A stretch of 54,083 nt of DNA from a virus. Taxonomy: Duplodnaviria; Heunggongvirae; Uroviricota; Caudoviricetes. Shown here piece by piece: positions 1,369 to 51,177 of the stretch (its first letter is position 1; the number at the start of each line of letters is the position of its first letter). The position numbers and the translations under genes were made by a program. The notes under the pieces are model-generated. The model searched no databases, was not told where the DNA came from, and was given only the letters and a program-made list of their open reading frames with translations. The stretch covers positions 1-54,083 of IMG/VR virus record IMGVR_UViG_2534682338_000012; one strand, 5' to 3'.

Positions 1369-1444
1369 GCCGATATAGCTCAGTTGGTAGAGCAGCGCAT
1401 TCGTAATGCGAAGGTCGTAGGTTCGACTCCTATTATCGGCACCA
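1369..1444 (+). tRNA. thrW: tRNA-Thr (anticodon CGU)
   Basis: 76-nt cloverleaf-compatible sequence GCCGATATAGCTCAGTTGGTAGAGCAGCGCATTCGTAATGCG...TTCGACTCC...GGCACCA with CGT anticodon and 3' CCA; coordinates approximate to 1-2 nt. Confidence 0.9.
1399..1444. repeat. attL core (3' 46 bp of tRNA-Thr)
   Basis: Exact repeat of 41810-41855 by eye (ATTCGTAATGCGAAGGTCGTAGGTTCGACTCCTATTATCGGCACCA). Confidence 0.7.
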
Positions 1445-15035: not shown

Positions 15036-15068
15036 AAAGCCGCCAAATAATTGGCGGCTTTTTTATTT
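15036..15068 (+). terminator. rho-independent terminator
   Basis: AAAGCCGCC-AAATAATT-GGCGGCTTT stem-loop followed by TTTTTATTT. Confidence 0.7.
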
Positions 15069-15107
15069 CACAGTACCCGCAAATATCGCGAGGTGAGAGA
15101 TGACGAA

Positions 15108-15434: not shown

Positions 15435-15437
15435 TTT

Positions 15438-16359: not shown

Positions 16360-16431
16360 ATCTATAGATGACACTCCTCGTTCGTATAAGATAATGCTAA
16401 ATTACTATTAGCTTAATCACAGGAGACGGAC

Positions 16432-32649: not shown

Positions 32650-33073
32650 TGGAACTGTGGCTGACGGTGAACGGTAAACGCACCTGCGCCAGCGCACCGC
32701 TGGATCCGCTGACCCGCGCCGTGGTGATTTCCCTGTTCACCTGGCGGCGGGCGGAGCCTGATGACAATGCCGACGTCCCGATGGGATGGTGGGGGATACC
32801 TGGCCTGCGGTACAGAATGACCGTTACGGCTCCCGACTGTGGTTGCTTCAGCGCAGCAAACTGACCAATCAGCTGGTGCAGACGGTAAGGGGATATATCC
32901 GCGAATGCCTGCAATGGATGACTGATGACGGCGTGGTGTCCCGTATTGATCTGGATATCCGCCGCACCGGGATTAATGAGCTGGGTAACAGTATCACCCT
33001 CTGGCGTCGTGATGGACCAGTAATGATTTCTTTTGATGATCTGTGGAGTGCGATAACGCATGGCGGACAGTGA
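32646..33073 (+). pseudogene. baseplate protein (Mu gp46-like) interrupted by frameshift in G-run
   Basis: ORFs 32646-32864 and 32786-33073 overlap in different frames; junction at GGTGGGGGAT where one extra G would give continuous ...DVPMGWWGDTWPAVQNDRY... Confidence 0.5.
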
Positions 33074-34118
33074 ATTTCAGCGCCCGACGCTGGCAGAAAA
33101 TATCAGTATGCTCCGTAACGATTTATTCGCCAGGCTGGACGTCAGCGACACGCTCCGGCGCATGGATGAAGACGTGCGGGCAAAGGTGTATGCGGCGGCG
33201 CTGCATACGGTCTACGGTTACATCGATTATCTGGCAATGAATATGCTGCCTGACCTGTGCGATGAGTCCTGGCTGGCGCGACATGCTGCGATGAAACGGT
33301 GTCCGCGCAAGGGGGCCACGGTTGCCAGCGGGTATATGCGCTGGGAAGGTGTCAGCGATGGCCTGAAGGTGACTGCCGGGAGTGTTATTCAGCGCGATGA
33401 CCTGGTGCAGTACACGACAACTGACGATGCAATCAGCTCCGGTGGTGTCCTGCGCGTGCCGATCGCCTGCTCAAGTGCAGGTGCGGTCGGTAACGCTGAC
33501 GACGGTACGGCATTAATCCTGGTCACGCCGGTGAATGGTCTGCCGTCTTCCGGTGTGGCTGACACCCTGACAGGCGGATTTGATACTGAAGAGCTGGAAA
33601 CGTGGCGCGCCCGCGTCATTGAGCGGTATTACTGGACGCCGCAGGGCGGGGCTGACGGGGACTATGTCGTCTGGGCTAAAGAAGTGCCTGGCATTACCCG
33701 CGCATGGACATACCGACACTGGATGGGAACGGGGACTGTCGGTGTGATGATTGCCAGCAGTGACCTGATTAATCCCATTCCGGAAGAATCAACGGAAACG
33801 GCGGCAAGACAACATATCGGGCCACTGGCCCCGGTGGCAGGCTCTGATTTGTATGTGTTCAGGCCGGTGGCACATACGGTGGATTTTCATATCCGTGTGA
33901 CGCCGGACACACCGGAAATACGGGCTGCCATCACCGCGGAGTTGCGTTCGTTCCTGCTGCGTGATGGTTATCCGCAGGGAGAACTGAAGGTGTCACGTAT
34001 CAGTGAAGCGATTTCCGGTGCGAACGGGGAATACAGCCATCAGTTGCTTGCACCGGCGGACAATATCACCATTGCGAAAAATGAACTGGCGGTTCTGGGG
34101 GCGATTTCATGGACGTGA
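33060..34118 (+). CDS. baseplate J-like protein
   Basis: 352 aa, canonical position. Confidence 0.75.
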
Positions 34119-34693
34119 CAAACGATGATTACATCCGTCTGTTGTCAGCACTGTTGCCGCCCGGTCCGGCGTGGTCAGCCAGCGATCCGGCGATTGCCGG
34201 TGCGGCACCGTCATTAACCCGTGTTCATCAGCGTGCGGATGCCCTGATGCAGGAGCTGGATCCGCGCACCACCACCGAACTGATAAACCGCTGGGAGCGT
34301 CTGTGCGGCCTGCCGGATGAATGTATTCCGGCAGGGACGCAGACCCTTCGCCAGCGTCAGCAACGGCTGGATGCGAAGGTTAACCTGGCGGGCGGCATCA
34401 ATGAGGATTTTTACCTTGCACAGCTTGCTGCCCTGGGCAGACCAGACGCCACCATCACGCGATACGACAAAAGCACGTTCACCTGCTCATCTGCCTGTAT
34501 TGACGCGGTGAATGCGCCGGAATGGCGGTATTACTGGCAGGTCAACATGCCAGCCGCCACCAACACCACCTGGATGACATGTGGCGATCCCTGTGATTCC
34601 GCGCTGCGCTTCTGGGGGGACACCGTTGTCGAGTGTGTTCTTAACAAACTCTGCCCGTCGCATACCTATGTGATTTTTAAATATCCGGAGTAA
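34109..34693 (+). CDS. tail protein (DUF2313/YmfQ-like)
   Basis: 194 aa, precedes tail fibre as in e14/Mu-type tails. Confidence 0.65.
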
Positions 34694-34696
34694 TCC

Positions 34697-35344
34697 ATGC
34701 ATCGTATAGACACGAAAACCGCGCAGAAGGATAAGTTCGGCGCGGGTAAGAACGGTTTTACCCGTGGTAACCCCCAGACCGGCACGCCTGCCACCGATCT
34801 GGATGATGACTACTTTGACATGTTGCAGGAGGAGCTTTGCAGCGTTGTGGAGGCATCCGGTGCCAGCCTGGAGAAGGGGCGGCATGACCAGCTGCTTACC
34901 GCGCTTCGTGCGCTGCTGTTAAGCCGCAAGAATCCGTTTGGCGATATCAAATCGGATGGCACGGTGAAAACAGCTCTCGAAAACCTTGGTTTGGGAGAAG
35001 CGGCAAAGAGGAATGTGGGGACAGGAGAAAATCAGGTACCGGATATGAACAGCTTTGGTAACTCATTGACCGCCAATGGATACCAGAAATTACCTGGGGG
35101 GATGATTATTCAATGGGGGAGTTTTTCTGTCTCACCAACCGGAGGAAGTGTTGGAACAGTTGATATAACATTACCTGTAGCTTTCCCTGCTGCTTGTCGT
35201 TCGGTAAACGCTCTTATTTCAACTAATGATCCTTCTGCCCGTTCTGTGGGCTTTGATATTGGAAGTACCAACAGAACTAAAATCAGATTTACTTACACTT
35301 CTGCTACAACAAATTCAATTTACTGGATGGCTGTGGGGTATTAA
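34697..35344 (+). CDS. tail fibre protein (constant N-terminus fused to variable segment A)
   Basis: [22 protein letters not shown]... conserved fibre N-terminus; crossover site lies inside the gene. Confidence 0.75.
34974..34999. repeat. left inversion crossover site (gix/pix-like)
   Basis: CTCTCGAAAACCTTGGTTTGGGAGAA; inverted copy at ~36832-36857. Confidence 0.55.
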
Positions 35345-35346
35345 CT

Positions 35347-35778
35347 ATGGAAAAGACATATTATTTTAATCCCTCTGATTCGGGATTTTATATTTCACCA
35401 GATAGCCAAACCATTCCTGAGAACGCTACGAAAATAAACTTTACTATTTATTCTGAGTTCGCAGGAGTTGCATGGCCTGATGGTAAAATACTTGGTTCAG
35501 ATAAAAATGGTTTTCCAGCATGGCAGGATGCGCCACCACTTACAAGCGAAGAATTAATCTCAATCGCTGAATCAAATAAACAGCGATTAGTTAATCAGGC
35601 CAACGAATACATGAACAGTAAACAATGGCCTGGTAAAGCGGCGATTGGTCGTCTGAAAGGTGAGGAACTGGCGCAATATAATTTGTGGCTGGATTATCTG
35701 GACGCACTGGAACTGGTCGATACTTCCAGTGCGCCAGATATTGAATGGCCTACTCCTCCGGCAGTTCAGGCCAGATGA
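35347..35778 (+). CDS. tail fibre assembly protein (for variant A)
   Basis: 143 aa, C-terminal LWLDYLDALELVDTSSAPDIEWPTPP typical of Tfa chaperones. Confidence 0.7.
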   Translation: MEKTYYFNPSDSGFYISPDSQTIPENATKINFTIYSEFAGVAWPDGKILGSDKNGFPAWQDAPPLTSEELISIAESNKQRLVNQANEYMNSKQWPGKAAIGRLKGEELAQYNLWLDYLDALELVDTSSAPDIEWPTPPAVQAR

Positions 35779-36352
35779 CATCCGGCGCGGTACTGGTATC
35801 TGTTGCCGTCACCGCGTCAATGTAATCCAGCACAGTGTTAAGTCGGGTGGTCTCTGCCTGCATCAGCTTCCGCCCGGCCTGCAATTTCAGTTGAATCAGA
35901 CTAATGGAAGCCATTGCAGTATCAATCAGTGACTGACGTTGTGCTTCTGCCGCGTCTACTGCGGCGCTATGCTGTGTCTCAGTATCCGTCACCCATTTCT
36001 CACCATCCCATTTATCGTATGGCGTTAACGGGGCGATAGTGGTTGTTTTTTCGGGGTAATCACCCGGAGTTGTGATTTCTTTGGCGTCTCCCGTTTCGGT
36101 GTTATAGACGATTTCACCGCGATGGTCTGGTACATATTCCCATGAGTTAAAATCTGCAGAGCGGCAGATTGCATAACCAGCTTTGTAGGTGCCTGGAGCA
36201 TCTAAACAGGAATAAGCCGGAATGCCGACACCAACAGCAAGATATTCAGTTGAAGCTGAAATATACTCCCGACTCATGACGTCAAAGTTATAAACAGTAA
36301 TTTCTCCTGCCATAGTGGCAATTAATTCACTGTTTAATTCTGCGTTATTCAT
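35750..36352 (-). CDS. tail fibre assembly protein (for variant B)
   Basis: 200 aa, C-terminal LNTVLDYIDAVTATDTSTAPDVIWPELP Tfa signature, opposite strand within invertible segment. Confidence 0.7.
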   Translation of the reverse strand: MNNAELNSELIATMAGEITVYNFDVMSREYISASTEYLAVGVGIPAYSCLDAPGTYKAGYAICRSADFNSWEYVPDHRGEIVYNTETGDAKEITTPGDYPEKTTTIAPLTPYDKWDGEKWVTDTETQHSAAVDAAEAQRQSLIDTAMASISLIQLKLQAGRKLMQAETTRLNTVLDYIDAVTATDTSTAPDVIWPELPEE

Positions 36353-36856
36353 TATGCAGCCCTCACAATATAGTTAAAAGCGACATTTCGTGGGCGTGTT
36401 TCATTCGCACCTGCAGGTTTAGTCGTTGCCGCAACAACACTACCCTCTGTAATAGCCGGGTTGGGAATTGGGTAATTATCGAAGTCAATGGCTGGAGACA
36501 GGGGCGTGATTTGTTTTAAAATCGTGGTGCCTGTAAAACTTCCCAGAGTCTGGTCGTTAGTTCGTGAAGTCCAGACTCCCCAATAGTGGTTATGACTGAC
36601 AATCGCACCGTCCTGAAGCGTTAATAATCCCCTTCCGTTATCCACTCCACGTCCGTCATCCCAGCCACGAATAAACTCACCGCGTAAATCAGGTAATTTA
36701 TTTGTCGGATAAGCCTTTGCCAGTTCCGGGTATTCTTCAGCAGAAAAAGCTGCTCCGTTGCATTTCAGCCAGCCTGTTGGCGGAGTGGCTGAAGGCCACG
36801 GAACAGGCACACCAACGGGTAATGCTGAGCCTTCTCCCAAACCAACGTTTATGAAA
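36352..36856 (-). CDS. alternative tail fibre C-terminal segment (variant B, currently unfused)
   Basis: Minus-strand ORF ending at crossover site; would fuse to fibre N-terminus after inversion. Confidence 0.6.
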
Positions 36857-36857
36857 A
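36832..36857. repeat. right inversion crossover site
   Basis: TTCTCCCAAACCAACGTTTATGAAAA, inverted relative to left site (shared TTCTCCCAAACCAA core). Confidence 0.55.
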
Positions 36858-36911
36858 TGCAGAAATAACGAGCAAATGGCATCATTCCTGCTTTTGTCAG
36901 GGAGATCTACC

Positions 36912-37466
36912 ATGCTTATTGGCTATGTACGTGTGTCAACAAATGACCAGAACACAGATCTACAACGTAATGCGCTGAACTGTGCAGGATGCGAGCTGAT
37001 TTTTGAAGACAAGATAAGCGGTACAAAGTCCGAAAGGCCGGGACTGAAAAAACTGCTCAGGACATTATCGGCAGGTGATACGCTGGTGGTCTGGAAACTG
37101 GACCGACTGGGGCGCAGTATGCGGCATCTTGTCGTGCTGGTGGAGGAGTTGCGCGAACGAGGCATCAACTTTCGTAGTCTGACGGATTCAATTGATACCA
37201 GTACCCCAATGGGGCGCTTTTTCTTTCATGTGATGGGTGCCCTGGCTGAAATGGAGCGTGAACTGATTGTTGAAAGAACAAAAGCTGGACTGGAAGCTGC
37301 TCGCGCACAGGGACGAATTGGTGGACGTCGTCCCAAACTTGCACCAGAACAATGGGCGCAGGCCGGGCGATTAATTGCATCAGGCGTTCCTCGCCAGAAG
37401 GTGGCGATCATCTATGATGTTGGTATATCGACACTGTATAAGAAGTTTCCGGTCGGAGATAAATGA
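36912..37466 (+). CDS. pin: serine DNA invertase (Pin/Gin/Hin family)
   Basis: MLIGYVRVSTNDQNTDLQ... catalytic Ser in YVRVST, C-terminal HTH; immediately right of invertible segment. Confidence 0.9.
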   Translation: MLIGYVRVSTNDQNTDLQRNALNCAGCELIFEDKISGTKSERPGLKKLLRTLSAGDTLVVWKLDRLGRSMRHLVVLVEELRERGINFRSLTDSIDTSTPMGRFFFHVMGALAEMERELIVERTKAGLEAARAQGRIGGRRPKLAPEQWAQAGRLIASGVPRQKVAIIYDVGISTLYKKFPVGDK

Positions 37467-37572: not shown

Positions 37573-38394
<822 letters not shown>

Positions 38395-38926
38395 CTAACC
38401 CTTTGAATTTACATAGCGCAAAAAGATACCTTTCCTCATAATGTGAGCTAATTTTATGTTTCGTTTGATGATCGGGTCGGTCTCGAAACCCGTAGCCACG
38501 TCATATGCAAGAACGTGCTACGACTGGCTGGTGAACTTCCGATAGTGCGAGTATTGAATGATTTCCAACTGTTATCGATTTTGCGTATTTTTAGCATGAG
38601 AGGATTCGCACCACCTCCCACCGACCATCTATGACAGTATGCCACTATCTATAGGACTGCTTTGTGCCAGCAGCGGACGGTATGTTTGTTAATTGGCGGA
38701 TTTTCTTGAGTAAATCAATAGGATAGGTGAAAAATTAATCAAAAGTTTATGGCCCTACTACCCATCAAACTGATAGAGCCTCTCCCTGGATGGACGACAA
38801 AATCAGATATTGGAAAGTCAATAATTAATACAAGCACCAACATTTCTTGAAAAGGTTATTTATAAAATGAAATAATTTTTAGCCATGTTATAGTGATGTA
38901 TTAACTTCAGATAAAGAGATTATAGG

Positions 38927-40363
38927 ATGAATGCTAAAATTTCATGTCCAATTGATGGGTATATCATAACAGATTTCATAGGAGACGGAGGGAACGGAGA
39001 TGTGTATCTTGTAACTTCAAGTTCTGGCGAGGAAGCATTCGCTTTAAAAATACTAAGAAATGTACAAGAATCAACTTATAATAGATTCAAGGTAGAAGTT
39101 AATTTCTTGAAAGATAATAAAGTAGATGGGGTAATGCCTTTGCTTGATTTTTACCTTCCAGATAATGCAAAAAAAGAACAAGCTTGGTATCTTATGCCAT
39201 TGGCTGAAAGCTTTAAAGAAAGTGTAAAGCAAAAAGATCCATTATCAATCATCTCTGAATTCATTCATCTCACTCAAACCATTATAGAACTCCATGACCA
39301 AAACATATCTCACCGGGATATAAAGCCAGATAATCTTCTATATTTGAATGGCAGGATATTTTTAGCGGACTTTGGATTGGTAAAATATCCTGAAAGAATC
39401 GAATTAACACCCGATATGCGAGACGTTGGCGCAAAATTCACAATGGCCCCAGAAATGAGACGGATAGCAAATCGTGCTGATGGGCTCCCGGCAGACATTT
39501 ACTCTCTGGCAAAATCAGTATGGATGTCTCTGACTAAAGACTATCTTGGTTTTGATGGTCAGTACAGCACAAAATCTAATATCGGATTATCAAACTACAT
39601 AAAAGAACTATATCTACCGCCCTTAGATGACCTATTAGTGCGCGCAACAGATAACGATCCGTATCAGCGACCAACTGCTGCGGAGTTTAAGACAGAACTT
39701 GAAAATTGGATAAAAATTAATAATGATTTCATCCAGCGTAATTTAACTGAATGGTTCGAAATCCAAAACCTACTATTCCCATACAGCACACCGAATAGTG
39801 TAGAGTGGACAAATAATGATGACATAATAAACATACTCAATTTAATAGCTGGAAGGGAGTCTCTAAATCACATGTTTTATCCTTCCGGTGGGGGAAGCGA
39901 TTTGATTTATGTCGAACCAGCCTCAGAAAAAGGATTTATCGCGCTTATAGTCTGTGAACGATGCGCTGAAATTTTAAAGCCCAAAAAACTTTCATTTGAA
40001 TCATTTGGTCATGATCCCGAATGGAATTATTTTCGTCTTGAATGTGAAGTAATCGAACCAATGAAAATTTCGGGTCCCGTTACTAGTTCAACGATGGATG
40101 AATACATGGTTGAAATTACGCCTGGAAATTACATACCTCCAGATTGCTGGGAAATAAATGAGTATCAAGGTAAACCTCTACCTGAAACCGCTAGAATTGT
40201 CAGCAGGTATATAAAAGGTAGTTTTGTATTTTTCTGCAAGTCATCAACTTATAACAGAATAAGCCAGACGTATAATGCTTGGCAGAATGTGGGGGAAAAT
40301 GAATTCAGAAAGCTAATCGCAAAATTTGCTCAGTATGCTTCTGCCCGAAGAACCATTAAATAA
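38927..40363 (+). CDS. Hanks-type Ser/Thr protein kinase with C-terminal domain of unknown function
   Basis: Gly loop IGDGGNGDVY, catalytic Lys (AFALK), HRDIKPDNLL catalytic loop, DFG (LADFGL), APE (MAPEMRR). Confidence 0.8.
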   Translation: MNAKISCPIDGYIITDFIGDGGNGDVYLVTSSSGEEAFALKILRNVQESTYNRFKVEVNFLKDNKVDGVMPLLDFYLPDNAKKEQAWYLMPLAESFKESVKQKDPLSIISEFIHLTQTIIELHDQNISHRDIKPDNLLYLNGRIFLADFGLVKYPERIELTPDMRDVGAKFTMAPEMRRIANRADGLPADIYSLAKSVWMSLTKDYLGFDGQYSTKSNIGLSNYIKELYLPPLDDLLVRATDNDPYQRPTAAEFKTELENWIKINNDFIQRNLTEWFEIQNLLFPYSTPNSVEWTNNDDIINILNLIAGRESLNHMFYPSGGGSDLIYVEPASEKGFIALIVCERCAEILKPKKLSFESFGHDPEWNYFRLECEVIEPMKISGPVTSSTMDEYMVEITPGNYIPPDCWEINEYQGKPLPETARIVSRYIKGSFVFFCKSSTYNRISQTYNAWQNVGENEFRKLIAKFAQYASARRTIK

Positions 40364-40719
40364 TATTCCAACTACTGTGGCAGCGTATTTAATACTTAAT
40401 TGGTCGCTACAGTGTACAAGGAAAGTGTGTTATATAGCGTTCATATTCTGATAAGCATATACAAATCAGGTGTTTTTCGGCTATTATCTTTTGGTATTCC
40501 GTTTTGCCTGCAGCACACTGACACATCTGCTTCTCGCTTACAGCCGCCGAGGTAAGAGAGCACGTTACCGCGTCGGTGGACTTACTGACCTATCAAAATA
40601 ACCGCTTAATGCCAGAAGCGGGTATTCAGAGTATCCTGCAACCATATGGTCATTACACAAAGTGGATAGCAAATGTTTCAGTTTTTTGGCTCAGGATTGA
40701 GCTGGAGTGAGGATAAATA

Positions 40720-41337
40720 ATGAAAAGTAGCCTTGAACAAGCTTTCCAAGAAGCAGCACACGCAGCAGATCGTGCAGTCAGCGGTGCGATGCTGAAGTAT
40801 TCTAATGGGTTGGTCACGGATGAAGACGACATAACAGGGGTACTGATCGGCCGGTTGGATGCTGTGTTTTCCGAAGAAATTGGTGGTGTAACATGGTCTT
40901 CATCCATTCTAAGGCACCGTAAGGGGGTAGCAGCAGAAGAAAAGAAGGTCGGTGCTGACATGCTGCTCCATGTCTCAATCTCAACACCAGAGCTCACCTA
41001 TTCAAAGGGGGTTTTGATTCAGTCAAAGAGAGTTGATGAAGGTATTGCAATGACAGCACAAGGTCACAAAGAATTGCTGGGACAGTGCGACAAAATGCTA
41101 AATATTACCCCGGCTTCGTTTGTTTTTACCTATACGAAGTCAGGGATGCGCTGCGCTTCCGCAACGAAGATTGTTGGAACAAGTAGCCGAATACTTAACG
41201 ATTCGTGCAACCTGACCTCTTATCGGTTCTTCCTGGAACTGTTCCGATGCACAATTGGAGATCGCAACATTACATCGGCCAAGTTTGATGATCTTCGGAT
41301 ACCTCAAGGCATTGCCATCAAGGGAACACTGGAGTAA
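40720..41337 (+). CDS. hypothetical protein (205 aa)
   Basis: ATG with GAGTGAGG RBS downstream of kinase; no recognisable domain. Confidence 0.5.
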   Translation: MKSSLEQAFQEAAHAADRAVSGAMLKYSNGLVTDEDDITGVLIGRLDAVFSEEIGGVTWSSSILRHRKGVAAEEKKVGADMLLHVSISTPELTYSKGVLIQSKRVDEGIAMTAQGHKELLGQCDKMLNITPASFVFTYTKSGMRCASATKIVGTSSRILNDSCNLTSYRFFLELFRCTIGDRNITSAKFDDLRIPQGIAIKGTLE

Positions 41338-41809
41338 GTGGTGTCTCTTCCTAGGCTTTGAGAGTGCATAGACACACAGCCTAAAGGCGGTATAACCCCA
41401 TTGGGTTAAATTATGTCTATTTAACCACATCATGATACGAAGATACCTTCCAAAATGTTGCCATGTACTCATCTGTTGTTGCCTGGCTGGTGACGTGTCT
41501 GGGTGTTAGCACCGTGCTCTCTCATTGTCTGAGTCTGGGCCAATCCACGCTCATAGCAGGCATTCACTTCAGTCATGGCGGAAAGGTATGCATGCTGGGT
41601 GGGGAAAGTGTGAAAGAAAAGAAGACTGCTGCGTCGTTTGTCGTCACGTTTATCTTCATTGGCTATGCAAGTCGTAATACAAGGTGGGACAAAACTGAGA
41701 CACATAAGGCCTCGCAATGGCTTGCAAGGCTTTACATGTTTTGATGTGGTGGGACGTGTGAGCGCAGTGTTGATGGGGTAATGCTTTGAATTAGAAGCGG
41801 ATTCTTATA

Positions 41810-41855
41810 ATTCGTAATGCGAAGGTCGTAGGTTCGACTCCTATTATCGGCACCA
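41810..41855. repeat. attR of prophage / attL of P4-like element (partial tRNA-Thr 3' end)
   Basis: 46-bp copy of tRNA 3' end lacking the 5' half. Confidence 0.7.
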
Positions 41856-42019
41856 TCACCTAGTTTTCCCAAGTCAACCCACATCAACAAAATCATTTAA
41901 AAACATATATATTACGTTATTTTCATACGTTTGAGGTCAACCCTTGTCTCTTGAAATCAACACGCGGTTGGGGGCACAATCAGGGGCATGTTCTGTTCGG
42001 TCTAGGAAATGTGCCCCCA

Positions 42020-43210
42020 ATGATGCTGAATGCCCGCAAGGTTGAAGCTGCGAAAGGAAAAGAGAAGAGCTACAAGCTGTTTGATGGAGGTGGCCTATAC
42101 CTTCAGGTCGAACCTAATGGCTCGCGTTACTGGCGTATGAAATACCGTTTTGCTGGTAAAGAGAAACGATTGTCCTTTGGTGTTTATCCAACAGTCACAC
42201 TTGCTGATGCCAGACAAAAACGAGAAGACGCGAAGAAACTACTCGCAGCAGGTGAAGATCCCGGCGAAGTCAAAAAAGCCAAAAAGCAGGCTTTAAATGC
42301 AGCGATTGAGACACTTAACCCATTCAGAGAAGTGGCGTTAGAGTGGCACAAAATGAAATCACCCAAATGGTCTGAGGGCTATGCTTCCGACATCATTGAG
42401 GCATTCGAGAAAGACATTTTCCCGCATATTGGGCACAGACCTATAGCTGATATTCAGCCCCTTGAACTGCTTGAAGTTCTGAGGTTGATAGAAGCTCGAG
42501 GCGCTATGGAGAAAGCGAAGAAAGTCCGTCAGCGATGCGGTGAAGTTTTTCGCTATGCCATCGTAACGGGTAGGGCAATCTACAATCCGGCACCGGATCT
42601 TGCCAGTGCGATGCAAGGACATGAAGCAGTCCACTATCCATTCCTCAAAGCCAACGAACTACCGGAGTTCTTTAATGCCCTTAATTCTTATTCAGGAAGT
42701 CCAATTGTATTGTTGGGGGCGCATTTACTTATCCTGACAGGTCTACGAACTGGAGAACTACGAGCAGGTGAGTGGCGAGAGGTGGATTTTGATAATGCGG
42801 TGTGGGAGATCCCAAAAGAACGTATGAAAATGCGTAGGAGCCATATTGTCCCGTTGTCAAAACAAGCATTATCCCATCTCAAAAGTTTGAAAGAACTAAC
42901 TGGGAACTACCCGCTGATGTTCCCTGGACGCAACGATCCTAGCAAATTTATGAGTGAAGCAAGCATTAATCAGGTGTTTAAACGTATTGGATATGCAGGG
43001 CGTGTTACGGGGCATGGTTTCAGGCATACGATGAGTACAATCCTACATGAGAAAGGATTTAACAGCGCTTGGATTGAAACCCAGCTTGCTCATTCGGACA
43101 AAAACTCTATTCGTGGAATTTATAACCATGCCCAATATCTCGAAGGGAGAAGAGAAATGATGCAATGGTATGCTAATTATTTATCTGAGCTAATTGGTAC
43201 TCATAAATGA
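42020..43210 (+). CDS. P4-type tyrosine integrase
   Basis: N-terminal LNARKVEAAKGKEKSYKLFDGGGLYLQV (DUF4102-like arm-binding domain), C-terminal HGFRHT...Y catalytic region; track start is TTG, ATG chosen. Confidence 0.85.
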   Translation: MMLNARKVEAAKGKEKSYKLFDGGGLYLQVEPNGSRYWRMKYRFAGKEKRLSFGVYPTVTLADARQKREDAKKLLAAGEDPGEVKKAKKQALNAAIETLNPFREVALEWHKMKSPKWSEGYASDIIEAFEKDIFPHIGHRPIADIQPLELLEVLRLIEARGAMEKAKKVRQRCGEVFRYAIVTGRAIYNPAPDLASAMQGHEAVHYPFLKANELPEFFNALNSYSGSPIVLLGAHLLILTGLRTGELRAGEWREVDFDNAVWEIPKERMKMRRSHIVPLSKQALSHLKSLKELTGNYPLMFPGRNDPSKFMSEASINQVFKRIGYAGRVTGHGFRHTMSTILHEKGFNSAWIETQLAHSDKNSIRGIYNHAQYLEGRREMMQWYANYLSELIGTHK

Positions 43211-44031
43211 ATATTTTAAAAATTAATAATACTGATTCTCTGCTCAGAGATTACTACCAGTTGGATGAAGCTTCAGAAAAAATTGGTTGTAGTGAAAAGG
43301 ATATACTCTGGTTTGCCAGAGAACGAGATGTAGAGCTATGCATGGAATTCCATGATGATGAGTATGATGTTTCATGTGGTTTGAAGATTGATGGTCAAAT
43401 GGATGAGTTCTTATCTAATCTGAAATATTTACCACGAGATAGAAATGGCAATATTATGTTGTCAGACTTAAGTTCTATAAGAATCCCTGATGAAGATAAT
43501 TTAATTGATAAAAATGGTTTTATTCGATGTTTCATATCCGGTTTATGGGCTGTTGATTATGAATATAAAGATCTGTTAGTTAAGCATGAGGGGCAACCGG
43601 ATTCTTGGCCTATTCATTTTCTACTGGCGGGTACGCCTAATATAAATTGTAAGGTAATTCTTTATGTAAATTATGATGAAAAAGAAAATTATTATCTTTT
43701 TGAGGTTTTGTGGATTACAAAGGTACAGATTCAAAAATTCATTGATATAGTCTTATGCGAACAAAAGCGGATAAAAAACGCCAATAAATATAAATCACAA
43801 TCTGAGGCGCAAAAACAAAAACATGCTGTTCCTCGAGCTGAAATACTCATGGCTATTATTTCGCTCTATCATCGTGATATGAGGCTAAGAAGAGAGAGTC
43901 CAGCAGCGATAGCTGATTATCTTTTTCAACATGCCAGTGAGTTCTGGCCTAAGACCGGAGAACCGCCTTTGAGCTATGATACTGTTGTTAGTTTGCTACG
44001 TAGTTGCATGAAAAACATTAAGTTTAACTAA
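43207..44031 (+). CDS. hypothetical protein (274 aa), AT-rich
   Basis: Start overlaps integrase stop (ATGA), no recognisable domain. Confidence 0.5.
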   Translation: MNILKINNTDSLLRDYYQLDEASEKIGCSEKDILWFARERDVELCMEFHDDEYDVSCGLKIDGQMDEFLSNLKYLPRDRNGNIMLSDLSSIRIPDEDNLIDKNGFIRCFISGLWAVDYEYKDLLVKHEGQPDSWPIHFLLAGTPNINCKVILYVNYDEKENYYLFEVLWITKVQIQKFIDIVLCEQKRIKNANKYKSQSEAQKQKHAVPRAEILMAIISLYHRDMRLRRESPAAIADYLFQHASEFWPKTGEPPLSYDTVVSLLRSCMKNIKFN

Positions 44032-44156
44032 ATATTAACAATTATTGTGGCTAATGATTTTGGATTTTTTTCATTAGTCACATTTTTCTCATTTATAACC
44101 TATGTTTTAATTTTCCGTGTTGAAGCCAATAGACTTAGATAAACGGAGAATGATGA

Positions 44157-44447
44157 ATGTTATCTAAACATGATAATACTACTTTGCAACGACCTTCAAT
44201 GGATTCTCTGATCGATATGAAGTTTATTACTTCCGATTGTTTATTAAGTGATAAATGGATTTATCGATTGATTTCTCTGAATCGCTTTCCAAAACCTATA
44301 AAAATAGGTCGGATGTCACGATGGCGCGCTGCTGATTATTATAAGTGGCGAGATGGGTTTGAAGAAAACTCAGGTCAACATTTTGAGGGAATGAGAAATA
44401 AGGCAAGAGCAATTAATAAAGGGAATAGATTATCACCTACTCCCTAA
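44157..44447 (+). CDS. AlpA-family phage regulatory protein
   Basis: C-terminal region resembles AlpA HTH (RLISLNRFPKPIKIGRMSRWRAADYYKW); true start may be internal (~44217). Confidence 0.55.
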   Translation: MLSKHDNTTLQRPSMDSLIDMKFITSDCLLSDKWIYRLISLNRFPKPIKIGRMSRWRAADYYKWRDGFEENSGQHFEGMRNKARAINKGNRLSPTP

Positions 44448-44479
44448 GCCTTAATTGATAGTTAGTAATATTTAACTGA

Positions 44480-44653
44480 TTAGCCTTTAGGGTCAATCCC
44501 GCGTGATTGGAGTTCTTTGCGTAAAATTCTTTTAATCCAAGTTGCCAACGCGCTATCTCCATCTTTGCGCATTTCGTTTTCGAGTTGCAACCTAAAATCG
44601 TCGGTAAGACGCATTTGGAATGGTGGAGAACGTTTCTCTTGTGGTGTTGACAT
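44480..44653 (-). CDS. small ribbon-helix-helix-like protein (57 aa), not in ORF track
   Basis: Minus-strand ORF MSTPQEKRSPPFQMRLTDDFRLQLENEMRKDGDSALATWIKRILRKELQ...; beta-strand/helix/helix pattern; two copies of CATGGTAATTACC palindrome at and upstream of start. Confidence 0.4.
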   Translation of the reverse strand: MSTPQEKRSPPFQMRLTDDFRLQLENEMRKDGDSALATWIKRILRKELQSRGIDPKG

Positions 44654-44784
44654 GGTAATTACCCTAGAATATGATGACTACATGGTAATTACCATTGTAA
44701 GTATAGTTCGCTTGTAAAAGCAATGCCCGATTGTGCGGGAACACAAATCGGGCATTTAACCAACCGTTATAAGAGGTAACGAAG

Positions 44785-44961
44785 ATGGCTAAACAGAAGT
44801 GTACCTGGTTATTTGCGGCGATCAACCGCAGTCAACGCAATGCCCGTCCTGTGATGTTAAGGATCACCGCAGATAACGAGCGGTCAGCGCGGCGCAGACT
44901 TGCCCCGGACTATGTACTGAGCTTTGCCGGGCGCATTCCCTGCGGAGGTGAACATGCGTAA
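44785..44961 (+). CDS. small protein (58 aa), possibly Icd-like
   Basis: AAGAGG RBS; MAKQKCTWLFAAINRSQRNARPVMLRITADNERSARRRL...; translationally coupled to next gene; family assignment from memory, low certainty. Confidence 0.35.
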   Translation: MAKQKCTWLFAAINRSQRNARPVMLRITADNERSARRRLAPDYVLSFAGRIPCGGEHA

Positions 44962-45313
44962 TTATCCGCACCCCGGCGAACGCTGGCAGCATGAACGTGG
45001 CTGGACGGTCACGATTATCCGATTAATAGAAGCCTCGCCCTCTGTGGCGCTGGTTAATCCTGAATTCAGCTGTGAAGTGCTGATACGTCATGACAGCGAC
45101 AACCAGCTTTCTTCCTGCCCTCTGGCATGGTTTGAACAGCGGTATACGCGCCTGTTTGATGTACCGCTCTTTAAGCCTGCACCAGCTCCTGCAGGCGGTA
45201 GTGGTTCCGGCCCGCTGACACTGCATCCGTCTGTGCTATTTATCCGCTGGCGGGAGCGTAGCATATGGCGTTCTGCTGAGCCTGACGACGGTCACTATTC
45301 AAAGTTTCTCTGA
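44954..45313 (+). CDS. hypothetical protein
   Basis: Start MRNYPHPGERW after GGAGGTG, overlapping upstream stop. Confidence 0.5.
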   Translation: MRNYPHPGERWQHERGWTVTIIRLIEASPSVALVNPEFSCEVLIRHDSDNQLSSCPLAWFEQRYTRLFDVPLFKPAPAPAGGSGSGPLTLHPSVLFIRWRERSIWRSAEPDDGHYSKFL

Positions 45314-45344
45314 CAAAATACCGCTGAAAACGGAGTAATCCACG

Positions 45345-45629
45345 ATGAATATTTCAAACGGGCACAACGGTGCTCAGGGCCACACTTTGCCTGAAAAACA
45401 CAATACCGGTGCTTTTGCCTATGGGTTGTCAGAGGACAGTTTCGGAAAGCTGACCCGCGCAAGAAATGCCTGCGACATGCTCCAGCTTCTCTTTTCTGAA
45501 TACCCGTCTCAGGCCGGAGCACTGGACGCTGGCTGTGCGCATGGTGTCGCCGCGCTGATGGAGTACCTGCTGGCAGATTTGACGGATATTGCACACAGTT
45601 GCGCACTGATTGAAGGAGGTGCCAGATGA
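45345..45629 (+). CDS. hypothetical protein
   Basis: 94-aa ORF in operon upstream of primase. Confidence 0.45.
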   Translation: MNISNGHNGAQGHTLPEKHNTGAFAYGLSEDSFGKLTRARNACDMLQLLFSEYPSQAGALDAGCAHGVAALMEYLLADLTDIAHSCALIEGGAR

Positions 45630-46009
45630 ACCAGCCGCAGGTTTCCATTTTCCCGGCAGAAATGACCACCGCGCTTTACCGGCGGGCTATTGCTTCAGCA
45701 TGGCGGCAGAAAATGCTGAACGAAACTGGCAGTGATCAGTATGGTCCGCACAGCCTGACGGTGGAGCGTATTGAAATGGCCATTGCGCTGCATATCGAGT
45801 GCGTACTGATTAACGAGTACGGCGAAGTGCAGGGCGCCGCTACCGCGCTGGCACTGCTGACTGACATGCTGGAGCCGTCACTGCTGACCGCGCCGCCGGT
45901 ACTGACCGCGCGCGGCTGTGAAGTGATGGCGGAGATGTACCGCACGCTTCCGGCGGCCTTTGATGACTTCTGCAGTACCGGTGTGACGTTGTATGAGGGG
46001 GAAGTATGA
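45626..46009 (+). CDS. hypothetical protein
   Basis: 127-aa ORF, stop-start overlap with neighbours. Confidence 0.45.
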   Translation: MNQPQVSIFPAEMTTALYRRAIASAWRQKMLNETGSDQYGPHSLTVERIEMAIALHIECVLINEYGEVQGAATALALLTDMLEPSLLTAPPVLTARGCEVMAEMYRTLPAAFDDFCSTGVTLYEGEV

Positions 46010-48678
46010 CAATACGGACGGTTACGCAGATTTCAGCCGCCGCACGGGGGAAATGGCCCGTTATTCTGCAGATGCTGCGTATTGATGTACCTGAAAACGG
46101 CAGGCACGGTCCCTGCCCGAAATGTGGGGGCAAGGATCGTTTTCGCCTTGATGACCTTGACGGGCGCGGGACGTGGATCTGCAGCCAGTGTGGCAATGGT
46201 GACGGTCTGGATCTGGTTAAGCTCGTAACCGGTTACAGCGTCAGAAAGGCTGCGCAGGAGGTGGCGCAGGTGCTTAATGTGCCGGATGTGCAGGAACTGC
46301 CTGTTAAGCCTGCCAGACAAAAAGCCCCTAAACGAGACATGGGTCTTACCGTGGCGGCGCTGATGAAAGAGAGCCACACGGGAGAAAGCGCCTATCTGAC
46401 AGGAAAAGGGTTCGCCGGATACCCGGCCTCTCTGACCGGAAGCGTGCAGCATATCAGCGGTAAGGATTTTCCTGCCGGTTCCCTGCTGTTACCACTCACG
46501 ACCAACACCGGAGCCGTGACCGGTGCACAGCTTATCGCCCCGACGGGTGAAAAAAGCATACTGCCCGGCAGCACGATGAAAGGCGCGTTTGTGTCGCTCA
46601 GCCCGTTACCGTCTGAACCACCGGTACAGGTGGTGATTACCGAAGGTTACGCTACGGCGCTGACGGTAAGCCAGCTCACTGCCGGATGCGTAGTGGCTGC
46701 CATATCTGCGGGCAACCTGCCCAATGTGGCGCAGTCGCTGCGGGCACGCTGGCCTGAGGTAAAAATTATCATCGCCGGTGATAACGATTTTCAGGACGGG
46801 GGTGAGAATCCCGGCAGAGCCTTTGCTGAACGGGCGGCAAAAGCTGTTGGCGGCTGGATGACGCTGCCACCAGGAGAGATTAAGGCTGACTGGAATGACT
46901 TTCATCGGGAGCACGGTATTACCCGTGCCCGTGAAGCCTTTCGCAACGGTCTGGTACTGTGCGGGGAAGGCCGCACGCAACTGCCGCACGGGTTCCGTCT
47001 TACCCAGGAATATCTCTGGTATGAAAAGCAGGTACAGCGCAACGGTGAGACGGAGATCCAGAACGTCAAAATATGCAGCCCGCTGCGCGTGACGGCAATT
47101 ACCTGCGATGCCGATGGCGGTAACTTCGGACGACTGCTGGAATGGGAAGATACGTGGGGTGAGTGTCGCCGCTGGGCGATGCCAATGGAAATGCTGAGCG
47201 GCAGTGGTGAGGAACTGCGCCGGGTTCTGCTGGTTAACGGGCTGTCTTATATCAGCACCACCGGTGAGGCACGCGCACGCCTGATGGAATATATCTCACT
47301 GTGTAAACCGGAACGCCGCGTGACCTGCGTCAGTCGTACTGGCTGGCATGGTCAGGTTTACGTCCTGCAGGATGAGGTCAGCGGTGAAGGTGCAGAGGGT
47401 GTCATTCTCCAGACCACTTCCGTGCAGGGGCGTGATTTCCGCGTGTCGGGCACAACAGAGGAATGGCGGGAGCATGTATCCCGCTACTGTACCGGCAACT
47501 CCCGCGTGGCATTTGCTGTCAGCCTGGCCTTTGCTGCACCACTGTTACGGCTGGTTGGTATGGACGGCGGCGGCTACCACCTCAAAGGGGAATCGACAGA
47601 CGGTAAGACCACCACCATGAAAGCGGCAACCTCCGTCTGCGGCGGGCCTGACTACTGGCAGACATGGCGGGCCACCGGCAACGCGCTGGAGGGATGCGCC
47701 AGCCGCCGTAACGATGCCGCCATGATGCTTGATGAGATCCGGGAAGTTGACGGACGCGAGGCAGGCAATATCGCCTACATGCTGGCAAACGGTCAGGGCA
47801 AGGGCCGTGCCGGTACGGACGGTGAGCTGCGTACCCGTAAGCAGTGGCGCCTGTTGTTCTTTTCAACTGGCGAGTTGTCTCTGACCGAACATGCGGCAAA
47901 GGCCGGTGAGCGTACTTTTGCCGGGATGGAAGTCAGGATGATCCAGATCCCCAGCGATTCCGGGAAGTTTGGCGTTTTTGAGGAGCTGCACGGCTTCGAC
48001 AGCGGCAAGGCTCTGGCAGAGCATCTTGAATGGGCCACGTCCTGCTACTACGGTTCGCCGTTCCGGGAGTGGCTGAAAGCACTGACCGCTGATCTTAACG
48101 GACTAACGGCACAGGCAAAATCGCTGATGAAGGAATATGCTGCCGCCCTGACTCCGAAAGATGCAGGCAATCAGGTGGGCCGGGCTGTGAACCGCTTTGC
48201 ACTGGTGGCGATGGCAGGTGAACTGGCAACCCGTCTGGGTATCACCGGCTGGCCTGAGGGTGAAGCACTGCGGGCAACCCGCGTCTGCCTGAACGCATGG
48301 CTGAAAGATCGCGGGCACACCGCCAATCAGGAAGATATCGCCGCACTGGAGCAGGTTCGCAGTTTCTTTACCGCGAATCAGTACAGCCGCTTTGCAGACT
48401 GGTATGACGAGCGCAACCGCCCCGGCAATATGGTGGGCTGGCGCAGGGTGGAGAAAGGCAGTACCGCGCAGGGCACGGAAGCTGTCACTACGTTCTATGT
48501 CATGCCGTCCGGCTGGAAAGAAATCTGCAGGGGATTTGACCCGCGCAAGGTGGCGCGTCTGTGCGCAGATCGTGGATACCTGCTGCCCTCCACTGATGGC
48601 AAACTCCAGACAACCATTCGCCCGCCAGAGATGAATCCCCGCAGGCTCTATGTCTTCAACAGCGAGGTGCCGGGTTAA
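46006..48678 (+). CDS. P4 alpha-like primase-helicase
   Basis: 890 aa; N-terminal zinc-binding CPKCGG...CSQCGNGDG, TOPRIM-like acidic region, central P-loop (GESTDGKT) helicase region. Confidence 0.85.
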   Translation: MTIRTVTQISAAARGKWPVILQMLRIDVPENGRHGPCPKCGGKDRFRLDDLDGRGTWICSQCGNGDGLDLVKLVTGYSVRKAAQEVAQVLNVPDVQELPVKPARQKAPKRDMGLTVAALMKESHTGESAYLTGKGFAGYPASLTGSVQHISGKDFPAGSLLLPLTTNTGAVTGAQLIAPTGEKSILPGSTMKGAFVSLSPLPSEPPVQVVITEGYATALTVSQLTAGCVVAAISAGNLPNVAQSLRARWPEVKIIIAGDNDFQDGGENPGRAFAERAAKAVGGWMTLPPGEIKADWNDFHREHGITRAREAFRNGLVLCGEGRTQLPHGFRLTQEYLWYEKQVQRNGETEIQNVKICSPLRVTAITCDADGGNFGRLLEWEDTWGECRRWAMPMEMLSGSGEELRRVLLVNGLSYISTTGEARARLMEYISLCKPERRVTCVSRTGWHGQVYVLQDEVSGEGAEGVILQTTSVQGRDFRVSGTTEEWREHVSRYCTGNSRVAFAVSLAFAAPLLRLVGMDGGGYHLKGESTDGKTTTMKAATSVCGGPDYWQTWRATGNALEGCASRRNDAAMMLDEIREVDGREAGNIAYMLANGQGKGRAGTDGELRTRKQWRLLFFSTGELSLTEHAAKAGERTFAGMEVRMIQIPSDSGKFGVFEELHGFDSGKALAEHLEWATSCYYGSPFREWLKALTADLNGLTAQAKSLMKEYAAALTPKDAGNQVGRAVNRFALVAMAGELATRLGITGWPEGEALRATRVCLNAWLKDRGHTANQEDIAALEQVRSFFTANQYSRFADWYDERNRPGNMVGWRRVEKGSTAQGTEAVTTFYVMPSGWKEICRGFDPRKVARLCADRGYLLPSTDGKLQTTIRPPEMNPRRLYVFNSEVPG

Positions 48679-48699
48679 GGCTTTGCGTGAGTCTTATTT

Positions 48700-48900
48700 A
48701 TTAAGGGTAACAGGTGAAACAGGTGGAACAACCGTATTTTACAGGGCTGAATCTGTTCCACCTTCTGAAATAGTGAGGTGGAACAGATGTAACGCCAGCC
48801 AATCCGCTGTTCCACCTTGTTACCCGCGATGTTCCACCGGTGCAGTGTATATAAATGCTTTATAAAACAAATGGGTAACACATGTTTCACCTGTTACACC
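48700..48900. repeat. ori/crr-like iteron cluster
   Basis: At least five copies of GGTGGAACA/TGTTCCACC in both orientations plus inverted GTAACAGGTGAAAC...GTTTCACCTGTTAC. Confidence 0.5.
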
Positions 48901-49078
48901 GCATCAGGGACATAAAGCAGACTGAAACAGAGGGCATTTTTATCTGGCTGGCTTTCATAGCCACGTCTGAATAACCGCAAGCGCCCGTTGTACCAGCCAC
49001 CACACACTGAGCACCGATAGTGTGCTTGTGTCAGCCACGACACAATTGACGTAACGAACCAACCCGACAGGAGAAGTC

Positions 49079-49822
49079 ATGAACAACACCGCAGTGAATA
49101 ACAACCTTTCCACTTTTCCGGCTGTAACGCAGCGGGCACTGGAAACCATGAACACAGCCAGAAACGCATGGCTTGAAGCACGTCGTCAGCAGAAAGCGGC
49201 AGCGGATAATATTGCGACAATCCGCCAGCGTCGCGCTGAAATGGAAGCCACGACGAACACACTGAATGAGGAGTGGCGCACGCTGTTTCGTGAAAGTCAG
49301 GGCGTGGTCTCAAAGGAAATGAAAAAACTGCGCACGGAAATTGCGCTGGGACGAGAAACTCTTGAGGATTTTGATGAGCTGCTGGAGGCTCAGGAAAGCG
49401 AAAATGCACTTTTGCCGCAGAAAGCTGCGGAATTAGCCGGAAAGTATATCCACGCGCATAACATCCTTGTGGATATTCGCGCAAAACAAATCTGGGAAGA
49501 TTTTATGCAGTCGCATGGAAAAGCGCTTATTCAGACGCTGAGCCTGCTTAAATCCACAATGGGCCGGGAAGCCAGTGCCGTTGTGGGTGTGGTGAATTCA
49601 GTTAATGACCCGGACACAGTGCTGAAAGACTTTATTCATAAACATATCACCAGACCGGCTCTGGCTAACGATGCGATGCCTGAGCAGGACCCGGTGTTTA
49701 AACTGGCGGGAGTTGCCCCGGATTATGCGGCGCGTCTGGATTTCAGTAATCAACTCTCTCCGGCAGCTATGCATAAAATTAAGGTTCGTCAGGAACTTGC
49801 TGAGAAGGAGAAAGCAGTATGA
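49079..49822 (+). CDS. possible Sid-like capsid size determination protein
   Basis: 247 aa, alpha-helical/coiled-coil character, immediately upstream of Psu; size close to P4 Sid. Confidence 0.35.
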   Translation: MNNTAVNNNLSTFPAVTQRALETMNTARNAWLEARRQQKAAADNIATIRQRRAEMEATTNTLNEEWRTLFRESQGVVSKEMKKLRTEIALGRETLEDFDELLEAQESENALLPQKAAELAGKYIHAHNILVDIRAKQIWEDFMQSHGKALIQTLSLLKSTMGREASAVVGVVNSVNDPDTVLKDFIHKHITRPALANDAMPEQDPVFKLAGVAPDYAARLDFSNQLSPAAMHKIKVRQELAEKEKAV

Positions 49823-50370
49823 CGGCCCGAGGCACGCCTGACCAGGCACTTACCAGTTTTCGGAATGCCCGTATTCTGTGGGCCGGACATAATGAGAGCC
49901 GAAAAGCCGTTGAACAACAGATAACATCTCTCCTCGCTGCCACAGAAAAACCAGCAGATTATGCCCGACAGCTCGAATTACTGCGGGAACGTCTGGATGT
50001 GCTGAAATGGCAAATTAACTGTGCTGCGCGCGAATGCATTTACTCGCAGCATTTACTGATGGAGGCCTGCACAGAAGCCGCTCTCAGCAATTTTATGCAG
50101 GCGAATGGGGCAGCCCTGACATCTGCACTGGCTCCGTTCCTGAAGGGGCGCGGAGGGGTTGACGTTGCGTCCCGTATATTACGCAGTGCTCTGGTTCGCC
50201 AGCTGGCAATAACACCGCCTGAAATTGCCGGGGATTATCGTGAGATCCTGGATGAATCCGGTTTGATGCCTGACCCCGGGATGATTCGTGATTGCCAGGG
50301 GTCTTACACCCCGGCACAACATCTGCGTTTTCAGCAACGCCTGAATGACATTAACGATATACAGGAGTGA
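49819..50370 (+). CDS. psu: polarity suppression protein Psu
   Basis: 183 aa; blocks recalled from P4 Psu (LKWQINCAAR, FMQANGAALTSALAPFL, YTPAQHLRF). Confidence 0.65.
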   Translation: MTARGTPDQALTSFRNARILWAGHNESRKAVEQQITSLLAATEKPADYARQLELLRERLDVLKWQINCAARECIYSQHLLMEACTEAALSNFMQANGAALTSALAPFLKGRGGVDVASRILRSALVRQLAITPPEIAGDYREILDESGLMPDPGMIRDCQGSYTPAQHLRFQQRLNDINDIQE

Positions 50371-50375
50371 TATTA

Positions 50376-50648
50376 ATGGCACTTAAATGTCCGGAATGCG
50401 GTACAGTTGCACACGCCAGAACAGCAGCCTATGAAGCTCCGTCAGTTAAACGCTCGTGGTATCAGTGCCAGAATCTGGAATGTTCCTGCACATTTACGGC
50501 ACTGGAGAGTGTGGATAAGATAATCATGAAACCCCGGCGCAATGAACAGCTATCAGACAAAGCACAATCCCCGGAAAAACAACAGCAAACGCTCAATCGC
50601 TATGGCTCCGCGTCAAAACTGTCAAGCCGTCAGCAGATTCCTGTCTGA
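50376..50648 (+). CDS. Ogr/Delta-family zinc-finger late activator
   Basis: CPECG...AHARTAAYEAPSVKRSWYQCQNLECSCTF matches Ogr C2C2 motif. Confidence 0.8.
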   Translation: MALKCPECGTVAHARTAAYEAPSVKRSWYQCQNLECSCTFTALESVDKIIMKPRRNEQLSDKAQSPEKQQQTLNRYGSASKLSSRQQIPV

Positions 50649-51177
50649 TTAGAAAAAAACGCCCACGTAATCCTGGTCGAGTACCGGGATTTTTAACACC
50701 TTTTCCCTGGCTGGCCTGAGAGCGCATGAGTGCATGTCTATGGCGCATGAAAATGCATGAGCCTTATGCACCTTTTTTGAGGCGAAAACCTTTGTGTGGT
50801 GGTATCTGAGACGATTTATGGCATGCATGAAAACCAGTCTGTTAAGCGAAGCGGGCAGGCGTGCGGGGCTGCCCGCGATAGCACTGAAATCAACAGGTAA
50901 AACTATTTTTTATTAGTAGTGTAAACTGGGAGCGAACGGACTCTGTCATGCTGTATCATCCTGTAATGATCAATCTCACTGGTGTCTGTATAGATGTCAA
51001 CCAGTTTCGACGGCTGTGTCTAACTTAAAATTAGAGCTTAATCAAGTTTTTCCTCGAGAATACTTTTAAAAGACAATGAGTTATGAGAAAGTGGAGGCTG
51101 TCACGTTGGTCATATGTAACACTCCACGTAATCTTAATCGCTTTGTAAATGTTGAAGTTAATTAATAGGGAAAACTG

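Follow-up and report, generated by a model that had tools for sequence, protein, structure and literature searches.

The 54,083-nucleotide (nt) stretch of viral DNA analysed here (IMG/VR record IMGVR_UViG_2534682338_000012; hereafter the window) carries an Escherichia coli prophage of about 40 kb, which is integrated at the tRNA gene thrW and spans 1.4-41.86 kb of the window. The final two prophage genes before the right attachment site attR encode a Hanks-type Ser/Thr kinase of 478 amino acids (aa), which continues into a conserved C-terminal domain (CTD), and a protein of 205 aa with a predicted PD-(D/E)xK fold (Table 1). Both open reading frames (ORFs) had been outlined in the original prediction for this DNA, which took them together for a candidate phage-sensing kinase system, and both were recovered exactly where it had placed them. 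The genes ahead of the pair are collinear with the right end of the E. coli K-12 prophage e14 (ymfQ-like, tail fibre, tfa, tfaE, stfE and pinE); the designation pinE is taken from the annotation of the corresponding gene in E. coli MS 119-7. The order at the prophage end is pinE, a homologue of the defence gene PD-T4-3, a variable cargo slot that is occupied here by the kinase gene and the 205-aa gene, and attR. The original prediction had equated the position behind the Pin invertase with the place where e14 carries mcrA, and the collinearity with the e14 order pinE-mcrA-attR bears this out.

Table 1. Coordinates of the features discussed in the text (position 1 is the first nucleotide of the window; for promoter and terminator sites the match is to the consensus only)
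Feature	Position	Strand	Basis or remark
tRNA-Thr (CGU), thrW, integration site	1369..1444	+	ARAGORN
attL copy of the att core, 3' segment of thrW	1399-1445		sequence reading
pinE-type serine invertase, closes the e14-like invertible tail-fibre module	36876..37466	+	Pfam Resolvase 1.8e-51, and HTH_7
PD-T4-3 homologue (LEM-3-like GIY-YIG nuclease)	37573..38349	-	PADLOC PD-T4-3 1.3e-128, profile positions 1-236 of 256
Variable cargo slot, 2.86 kb	38683..41543		blastn breakpoints 38678-38682 and 41544-41548
Best sigma-70-like promoter match, 10/12, extended -10 TG, 50 nt upstream of the kinase ATG	38847..38876	+	consensus only
Kinase gene, whole ORF, 478 aa	38927-40363	+
Kinase gene part 1, Hanks-type Ser/Thr kinase domain, residues 1-261	38927..39709	+
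Kinase gene part 2, conserved CTD, residues 262-478, ~215 aa	39710..40363	+
Intergenic gap between the kinase and 205-aa genes, 356 nt	40364..40719
205-aa protein, predicted PD-(D/E)xK fold	40720..41337	+	WP_000842629.1
Terminator-like hairpin, 56 nt past the 205-aa stop codon	41393..41408	+	consensus only
attR, 47-bp direct repeat of the tRNA-Thr 3' segment, prophage end	41810..41856	+	sequence identity with 1399-1445
P4-type integrase of the satellite	41951-43210
DUF927/Toprim primase of the satellite	46006-48678
Psu/Sid-like proteins of the satellite	49079-50370
SMEK-domain protein, satellite cargo	51178-52137		PADLOC Aga_REase-PNTD N-terminus, 3e-41
DUF2326/PDC-M68B protein, satellite cargo	52368-54083		1.4e-48; runs past the window end

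The boundaries of the slot were defined by blastn against six loci that share this prophage end and carry other cargo. The flanks are 83-96% identical to those of the other strains (93-96% in most), while the interior is exchanged. Matches to the flanks in >5,000 genomes stem from the universal tRNA-Thr fragment and from short repeats, and true two-flank matches are far fewer. At least seven different cargos are known for the slot across strains. The occupants found elsewhere comprise a RelA/SpoT homologue of 424 aa, a DUF6650 protein, a trypsin-like S1 peptidase (Trypsin_2) with a protease domain resembling those of defence proteins, a pair of uncharacterised proteins of which one is PDC-S64-like and two other uncharacterised proteins. 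DUF6650 has been implicated in defence experimentally in the DefensePredictor study. The cargo composed of the kinase and 205-aa genes is rare, as it occurs in only 3 of 5,426 complete E. coli genomes (MS 119-7, CFIAFB20190172 and M8) and in three IMG/VR contigs. The conserved left flank of the slot contains (region 38486-38572) a pseudogene fragment of 81-87 nt for which the RefSeq annotation is 'capsid protein'; short fragments akin to it recur beside DinI-like genes in other prophages, and it may be a recombination scar that aids cargo exchange. With no Rfam match and no nucleotide homology, neither the slot flanks nor the gap between the two genes gives any sign of a structured RNA. The promoter and terminator scans returned site counts not above those of shuffled controls, and the sites listed in Table 1 are to be read as positions only.

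Between pinE and the kinase gene, on the opposite strand and divergent from the latter, lies the PD-T4-3 homologue, a gene that the original prediction had passed over. It counts as a full-length member of the PD-T4-3 family, matches LEM-3_GIY-YIG in Pfam (2.4e-14) and at 774 nt equals the original PD-T4-3 ORF in size. PD-T4-3 is a single-gene GIY-YIG defence that was validated by Vassallo et al. and is active in a native host. In strain 914033 a type II restriction-modification (R-M) system is found at the PD-T4-3 position. Sharp flank breakpoints, swapped cargos that include defence-type genes, the adjoining PD-T4-3 (or type II R-M system) and the collinearity with e14 together identify the locus as a phage-borne defence-cargo hotspot. 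This reading is well supported and upholds what had been proposed for the slot from the outset; phage-borne defence hotspots are established for P2/P4 and other prophages.

The catalytic part of the kinase is readily recognised. Residues 15-254 match positions 4-257 of the 263-position Pfam profile Pkinase (PF00069) with an E-value of 4.6e-21 and 75.8 bits, against a gathering cut-off of 31.7, and the nearest solved relative of the domain is human STK11 (3.8e-11). All of the canonical kinase motifs that the original prediction had named are present, and they are invariant in an alignment with 31 homologues of 45-84% identity. The invariant positions are the glycines G19/G21/G22/G24, K41, E57, H129-R130-D131, K133, N136, D148-F149-G150, A174-P175-E176, D190 and R248, and the activation-segment threonines T161 and T172 do not vary either. 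The invariance of the catalytic elements argues for a kinase that is catalytically active and under purifying selection. The accession of the protein, WP_000992183, was not found in the literature.

The roughly 200 residues behind the kinase domain, which the original prediction had set apart as a domain of unknown function, form a conserved CTD. Modelled alone with AlphaFold2 (AF2), the CTD reaches a pLDDT of 89.1 and a pTM of 0.87, and it has no detectable relative in BFVD, in PDB (by sequence) or in any of 5,027 PADLOC models. When 1.84 billion cluster representatives were searched with the CTD only, 813 proteins were retrieved at E<=1e-3. The full-length kinase-CTD architecture is kept at 95-100% coverage in 715 database clusters, and in a Pfam scan of ten varied CTD architectures Pkinase lay directly upstream of the CTD in all seven that gave any Pfam match. 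Free-standing copies of the CTD were considered as well: the genomic surroundings were inspected for two matches of ~210 aa, of which one is what is left of a decayed kinase-CTD gene and the second adjoins a receiver-domain protein. Judging from these searches, the CTD is found essentially only behind Hanks kinases. A relationship between the CTD and the 205-aa protein was rejected (hhalign probability 0.1%). Five long members of the family, of 620-780 aa, carry an extra C-terminal region beyond the CTD. Conserved motifs run through this third region (e.g. HLFTxxEI...GDDSxxNTLVI...YNNYVGKYS), which matches nothing in Pfam or PADLOC and may act as an effector or as an additional regulatory module.

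The genomic context of the kinase family was surveyed at 22 full-length loci in different genera (one genome per species), in four divergent viral contigs, and in Vibrio, Acinetobacter and Serratia. When the flanking ORFs of 27 kinase loci were clustered, no conserved neighbour emerged, the only recurrent one being a serine recombinase at three loci. The nearest relative outside E. coli, the kinase of Serratia nevei (84% identity), is a solitary insertion between nrdDG and arsP/phn. In Vibrio diabolicus (positions 5846-7561 of the locus taken from CP169050.1) a homologue with 50% identity constitutes one cassette of the chromosomal superintegron, which has 16-19 VCR/attC repeats in 13 kb; the gene is bordered by VCR/attC on both sides, and the adjoining cassettes encode GNAT acetyltransferases, Imm49 and MazG-like proteins. 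Across the family the neighbours repeatedly include Septu PtuA/B, GajB-like helicases, TIR, patatin, PLD, AAA_15/21 and DRT-type helicases. The kinase with its CTD is an autonomous single-gene unit, because elsewhere it is found by itself: in one integron cassette, on a plasmid, and in a chromosome where it is a lone insertion.

The second gene of the slot is equally genuine, as the original prediction had assumed. The 205-aa protein has 338 homologues with 55-100% identity, and its AF2 model reaches a pLDDT of 86.2 and a pTM of 0.84; at the sequence level it has no match in Pfam, PADLOC, NCBIfam, PHROG or PDB. The model displays an alpha/beta core fold like that of restriction endonucleases, and the closest known groups for the protein are PD-(D/E)xK nucleases, namely RecU/Hjc resolvases and type II restriction endonucleases. 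Its invariant residues are D34-E35-D36-D37 at the start of helix 35-49, E74, D80 just ahead of strand 81-88, and Q101-x-K103-R104 within strand 93-104. In this putative motif a Gln takes the place of the usual acid, and the secondary-structure positions in the model are those expected of a PD-(D/E)xK catalytic motif. An invariant acidic/Lys motif is typical of active PD-(D/E)xK enzymes. Six distinct loci were fetched to characterise the contexts of the gene. The homologues occur singly within integrative and defence islands, often beside a P4-type integrase, and dynamin-like, BrxC/D-TerB-DEAD, methyltransferase/PRTase-CE and AAA_15/21 genes occur near them. For the Enterobacter and Klebsiella copies the nucleotide homology with the window is confined to 40676-41343, that is, to the ORF and its ribosome-binding site (RBS); in Enterobacter it begins just 44 nt ahead of the ATG. 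The identical protein of E. coli MS 119-7 (WP_000842629.1) is listed as a "Predicted novel defense gene" in DefensePredictor Table S10, the only place in the literature where the accession was found. Its mean log-odds there, 11.3, exceeds the strict cut-off of 4, the protein is not among the cloned-system tables, and PD-(D/E)xK is the commonest domain among the validated hits of that study. Most likely the 205-aa protein is a stand-alone nuclease-type factor for defence or for competition between mobile genetic elements, with a nuclease activity that we infer from the modelled fold and the motif.

Whether the two genes belong together can be judged from their linkage. They are adjacent on the same strand in this prophage, in the three complete E. 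coli genomes mentioned above and in two or three IMG/VR contigs. Beyond this one lineage they do not co-occur in either direction, since tblastn found no 205-aa homologue at any kinase locus outside the prophage lineage (up to 8 kb on each side) and no kinase in any of the six 205-aa contexts, and each of the genes is found alone as a complete mobile unit. The gap that separates them is unique sequence. Its first 312 nt (40364-40675) find no counterpart among the fetched loci or in Rfam, and this spacer may be the junction left by the stacking of two cargo modules. Also located in the gap are a weak promoter-like site (40458-40487) and, ahead of the ATG of the 205-aa gene, a strong Shine-Dalgarno sequence (GGAGTGAGG). 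The G+C content (GC) of the genes differs by 10 points (~37% in the kinase gene, ~47% in the 205-aa gene), and over the same taxonomic span the kinases are 45-57% identical, the 205-aa proteins 75-89%. The two proteins do not co-evolve, the 205-aa protein being far more conserved across orders. Their adjacency is best read as the stacking of two cargo genes in one hotspot. Of the phage-sensing kinase system envisaged in the original prediction, the kinase stands as a reasonable anti-phage candidate, whereas its pairing with the 205-aa gene does not hold up, because the two do not co-localise outside the lineage.

Taken together, it is with moderate confidence that we regard the locus as a prophage-end hotspot in which two independent single-gene defence candidates have been stacked. 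The kinase and its CTD would most likely constitute a single-protein anti-phage kinase of the abortive-infection type. The CTD would hold the kinase off, or dock a partner, until infection occurs; the kinase would then phosphorylate host and/or phage proteins and phage growth would stop, as in the case of Stk2. Because the gene is a lone cassette without phosphatase or antitoxin, we infer that whatever restrains the kinase, if anything does, has to act within the molecule or come from the host. The 205-aa protein travels as a tight ORF-plus-RBS cassette and would act as a stand-alone nuclease-type factor.

Several observations weigh against this reading. The CTD does not outpace the kinase domain in its evolution (52% versus 51% mean pairwise identity), as a direct arms-race sensor of phage proteins would be expected to. 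Being as conserved as the kinase domain, it does not qualify as a fast-evolving sensor of variable phage proteins, and it is easier to reconcile with a module for docking or autoinhibition, or with one that binds a conserved ligand. Many of the kinase neighbourhoods consist of ordinary chromosomal genes. The models of defence kinases align only with the generic kinase domain (residues ~5-264), and the PADLOC label PD-T4-6 is known to catch housekeeping PASTA kinases. As for the 205-aa protein, its top structural match is Rep15, a Rab effector not known as a nuclease; the overall validation rate of DefensePredictor is 45%, and the score is not fully independent of the PD-T4-3 neighbourhood, as the method makes partial use of local context. 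Lastly, there is no convincing terminator between the two genes, so that their co-transcription in the prophage is possible.

Other explanations have been considered for each of the genes. The kinase could be a moron for lysogenic conversion or regulation that alters host physiology or prophage induction in a KKP-like manner, or it could resemble a secreted effector kinase. Such a role seems unlikely to us: neither a partner phosphatase nor a second kinase is present near the kinase gene; the family extends to free-living marine and soil bacteria, integron cassettes and plasmids and is not bound to one phage type or to secretion systems; the other occupants of the slot and the direct neighbour of the kinase are defence genes; and known defence genes recur beside its homologues. 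What speaks for it is that Hanks kinases have many roles, that the KKP module of prophages controls lysogeny as well as defence, that the Serratia copy is placed among core metabolic genes, that the CTD is conserved and not diversifying, and that no defence-specific model covers the whole protein.

The 205-aa protein, in turn, could be a DNA-processing accessory of integrative elements, for example a resolvase, a factor of the recombination-directionality type or an inactive adaptor with a nuclease fold. This we hold to be improbable, since the gene lies here at the prophage end opposite any integrase, inside a cargo slot, and other copies are without an adjacent integrase; moreover, the protein has the invariant acidic/Lys motif and a high DefensePredictor score, and its sporadic and rare occurrence (see the E. 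coli count above) is unlike that of a core element function. Least credible is one two-gene system in which, for instance, a sensor kinase activates or restrains a nuclease effector by phosphorylation: the pairing would be sensible, and the adjacency on one strand and the lack of a convincing terminator would suit it, but the linkage data have largely refuted it and it was rejected on those grounds.

Tentatively, the kinase and its CTD could be the founding E. coli example of a large, undescribed family of single-protein immune kinases. The CTD would in that case represent a novel fold, with the task of gating the kinase or choosing its targets, the mechanism would be distinct from those of Stk2, PD-T4-6, Mad6 and KKP, and the longer members would add a third module. 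On the same tentative reading, the candidate family would comprise at least 813 clusters at 50% identity, in Proteobacteria and beyond, which reside in prophages, integron cassettes, plasmids and defence islands. Should the kinase protect against phages, it would add a widespread, cassette-sized, single-gene module of kinase immunity, and it would offer a compact model for infection sensing by Hanks kinases that operate without a partner phosphatase or antitoxin and with a regulatory domain that has no structural precedent. In the 205-aa protein, if our reading of it is true, one would have a stand-alone PD-(D/E)xK defence of minimal size, already picked out by a machine-learning screen. Of the two, the kinase family, with a CTD that is obligatory, is of greater interest. 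The locus as a whole documents a two-position defence hotspot in thrW prophages (pinE, PD-T4-3 position, terminal slot, attR) beside the hotspot of a P4-like satellite, and it should be useful for cargo mining. No current concept is overturned, as both prophage-end defence hotspots and defence kinases are already established.

The P4-like satellite has inserted in tandem with the prophage, where the tRNA-Thr end is regenerated, and occupies window positions 41857-54083. Its cargo region, with the SMEK and DUF2326/PDC-M68B genes, has a GC of 30-33% and is a second defence hotspot within the window. A 274-aa ORF of the satellite (43207-44031, + strand), which overlaps the P4-type integrase gene at the stop codon of the latter, lies in a stretch of 36% GC and has no significant match in Pfam, PADLOC, NCBIfam or PHROGs. 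Within the prophage, the Q antiterminator gene (13278-14030) is followed by a 261-aa ORF of 36% GC without a family match (14233-15018) and by a gene for a DUF6236 protein (16432-17295). This post-Q region (13278-17295) is a classic moron position and may hold further accessory cargo. In the prophage copy of E. coli MS 119-7, an insertion sequence (IS) element of the IS21 family disrupts the baseplate J gene and one of the IS3 family the invertible tail-fibre segment; these genes are intact in the window (33060-36900).

With respect to its layout, the locus resembles the pinE-mcrA end of e14 and the P2/P4 hotspots, in which a conserved phage module is followed by exchangeable defence cargo and an att site. 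In e14 pinE is followed by mcrA and attR, and the slot described here holds the position equivalent to that of mcrA. However, e14 integrates at icd and the present prophage at thrW. The present hotspot also differs from those of e14 and P2/P4 in that the slot is doubled (the PD-T4-3 position and the terminal slot) and the cargo repertoire is another one.

The best PADLOC matches of the kinase are mad6 (5.8e-25), more than 20 PD-T4-6 models (1e-10 to 2.7e-24) and Stk2 (4.2e-16), and membership in PD-T4-6, Stk2, Mad6 or KKP was rejected, as the similarity is that of generic kinase domains. The kinase of the MADS system, Mad6, provides the top-scoring match to the kinase domain. Mad6 belongs to a multi-gene methylation-associated system, whereas the gene in the slot adjoins no MADS partners and has only PD-T4-3 and the 205-aa gene as neighbours; in NCBIfam it scores 65 bits against the MAD6 cut-off of 460. 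The KKP module of Pf prophages (PfkA/PfkB/PfpC) likewise consists of prophage-encoded Hanks kinases linked to defence. It is, however, a toxin-antitoxin-like operon of two kinases and a phosphatase, whereas the kinase described here is alone: the slot contains no second kinase or PP2C-type phosphatase, and neither is a conserved neighbour in the 27 loci. PD-T4-6 (Vassallo et al. 2022; RRM76169.1) is closer in kind, being a single-gene Hanks kinase on E. coli mobile DNA that also has a non-kinase C-terminal region. It differs in length (436 aa versus 478 aa), the PADLOC profiles of 415-460 positions align with the present protein over their first ~200 positions only, and the CTD alone matches no PD-T4-6 model at E<=1. 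Stk2, from Staphylococcus epidermidis (Depardieu et al. 2016), is also a eukaryotic-like kinase that consists of a single protein and works on its own. Only positions 131-319 of its 500-position profile, the kinase core, are matched, its flanking domains are different, and it is encoded by a host from another phylum, whereas the gene described here is prophage or cassette cargo. While it is no demonstrable member of any of these families, the kinase is probably a single-protein immunity module in the manner of Stk2 or PD-T4-6.

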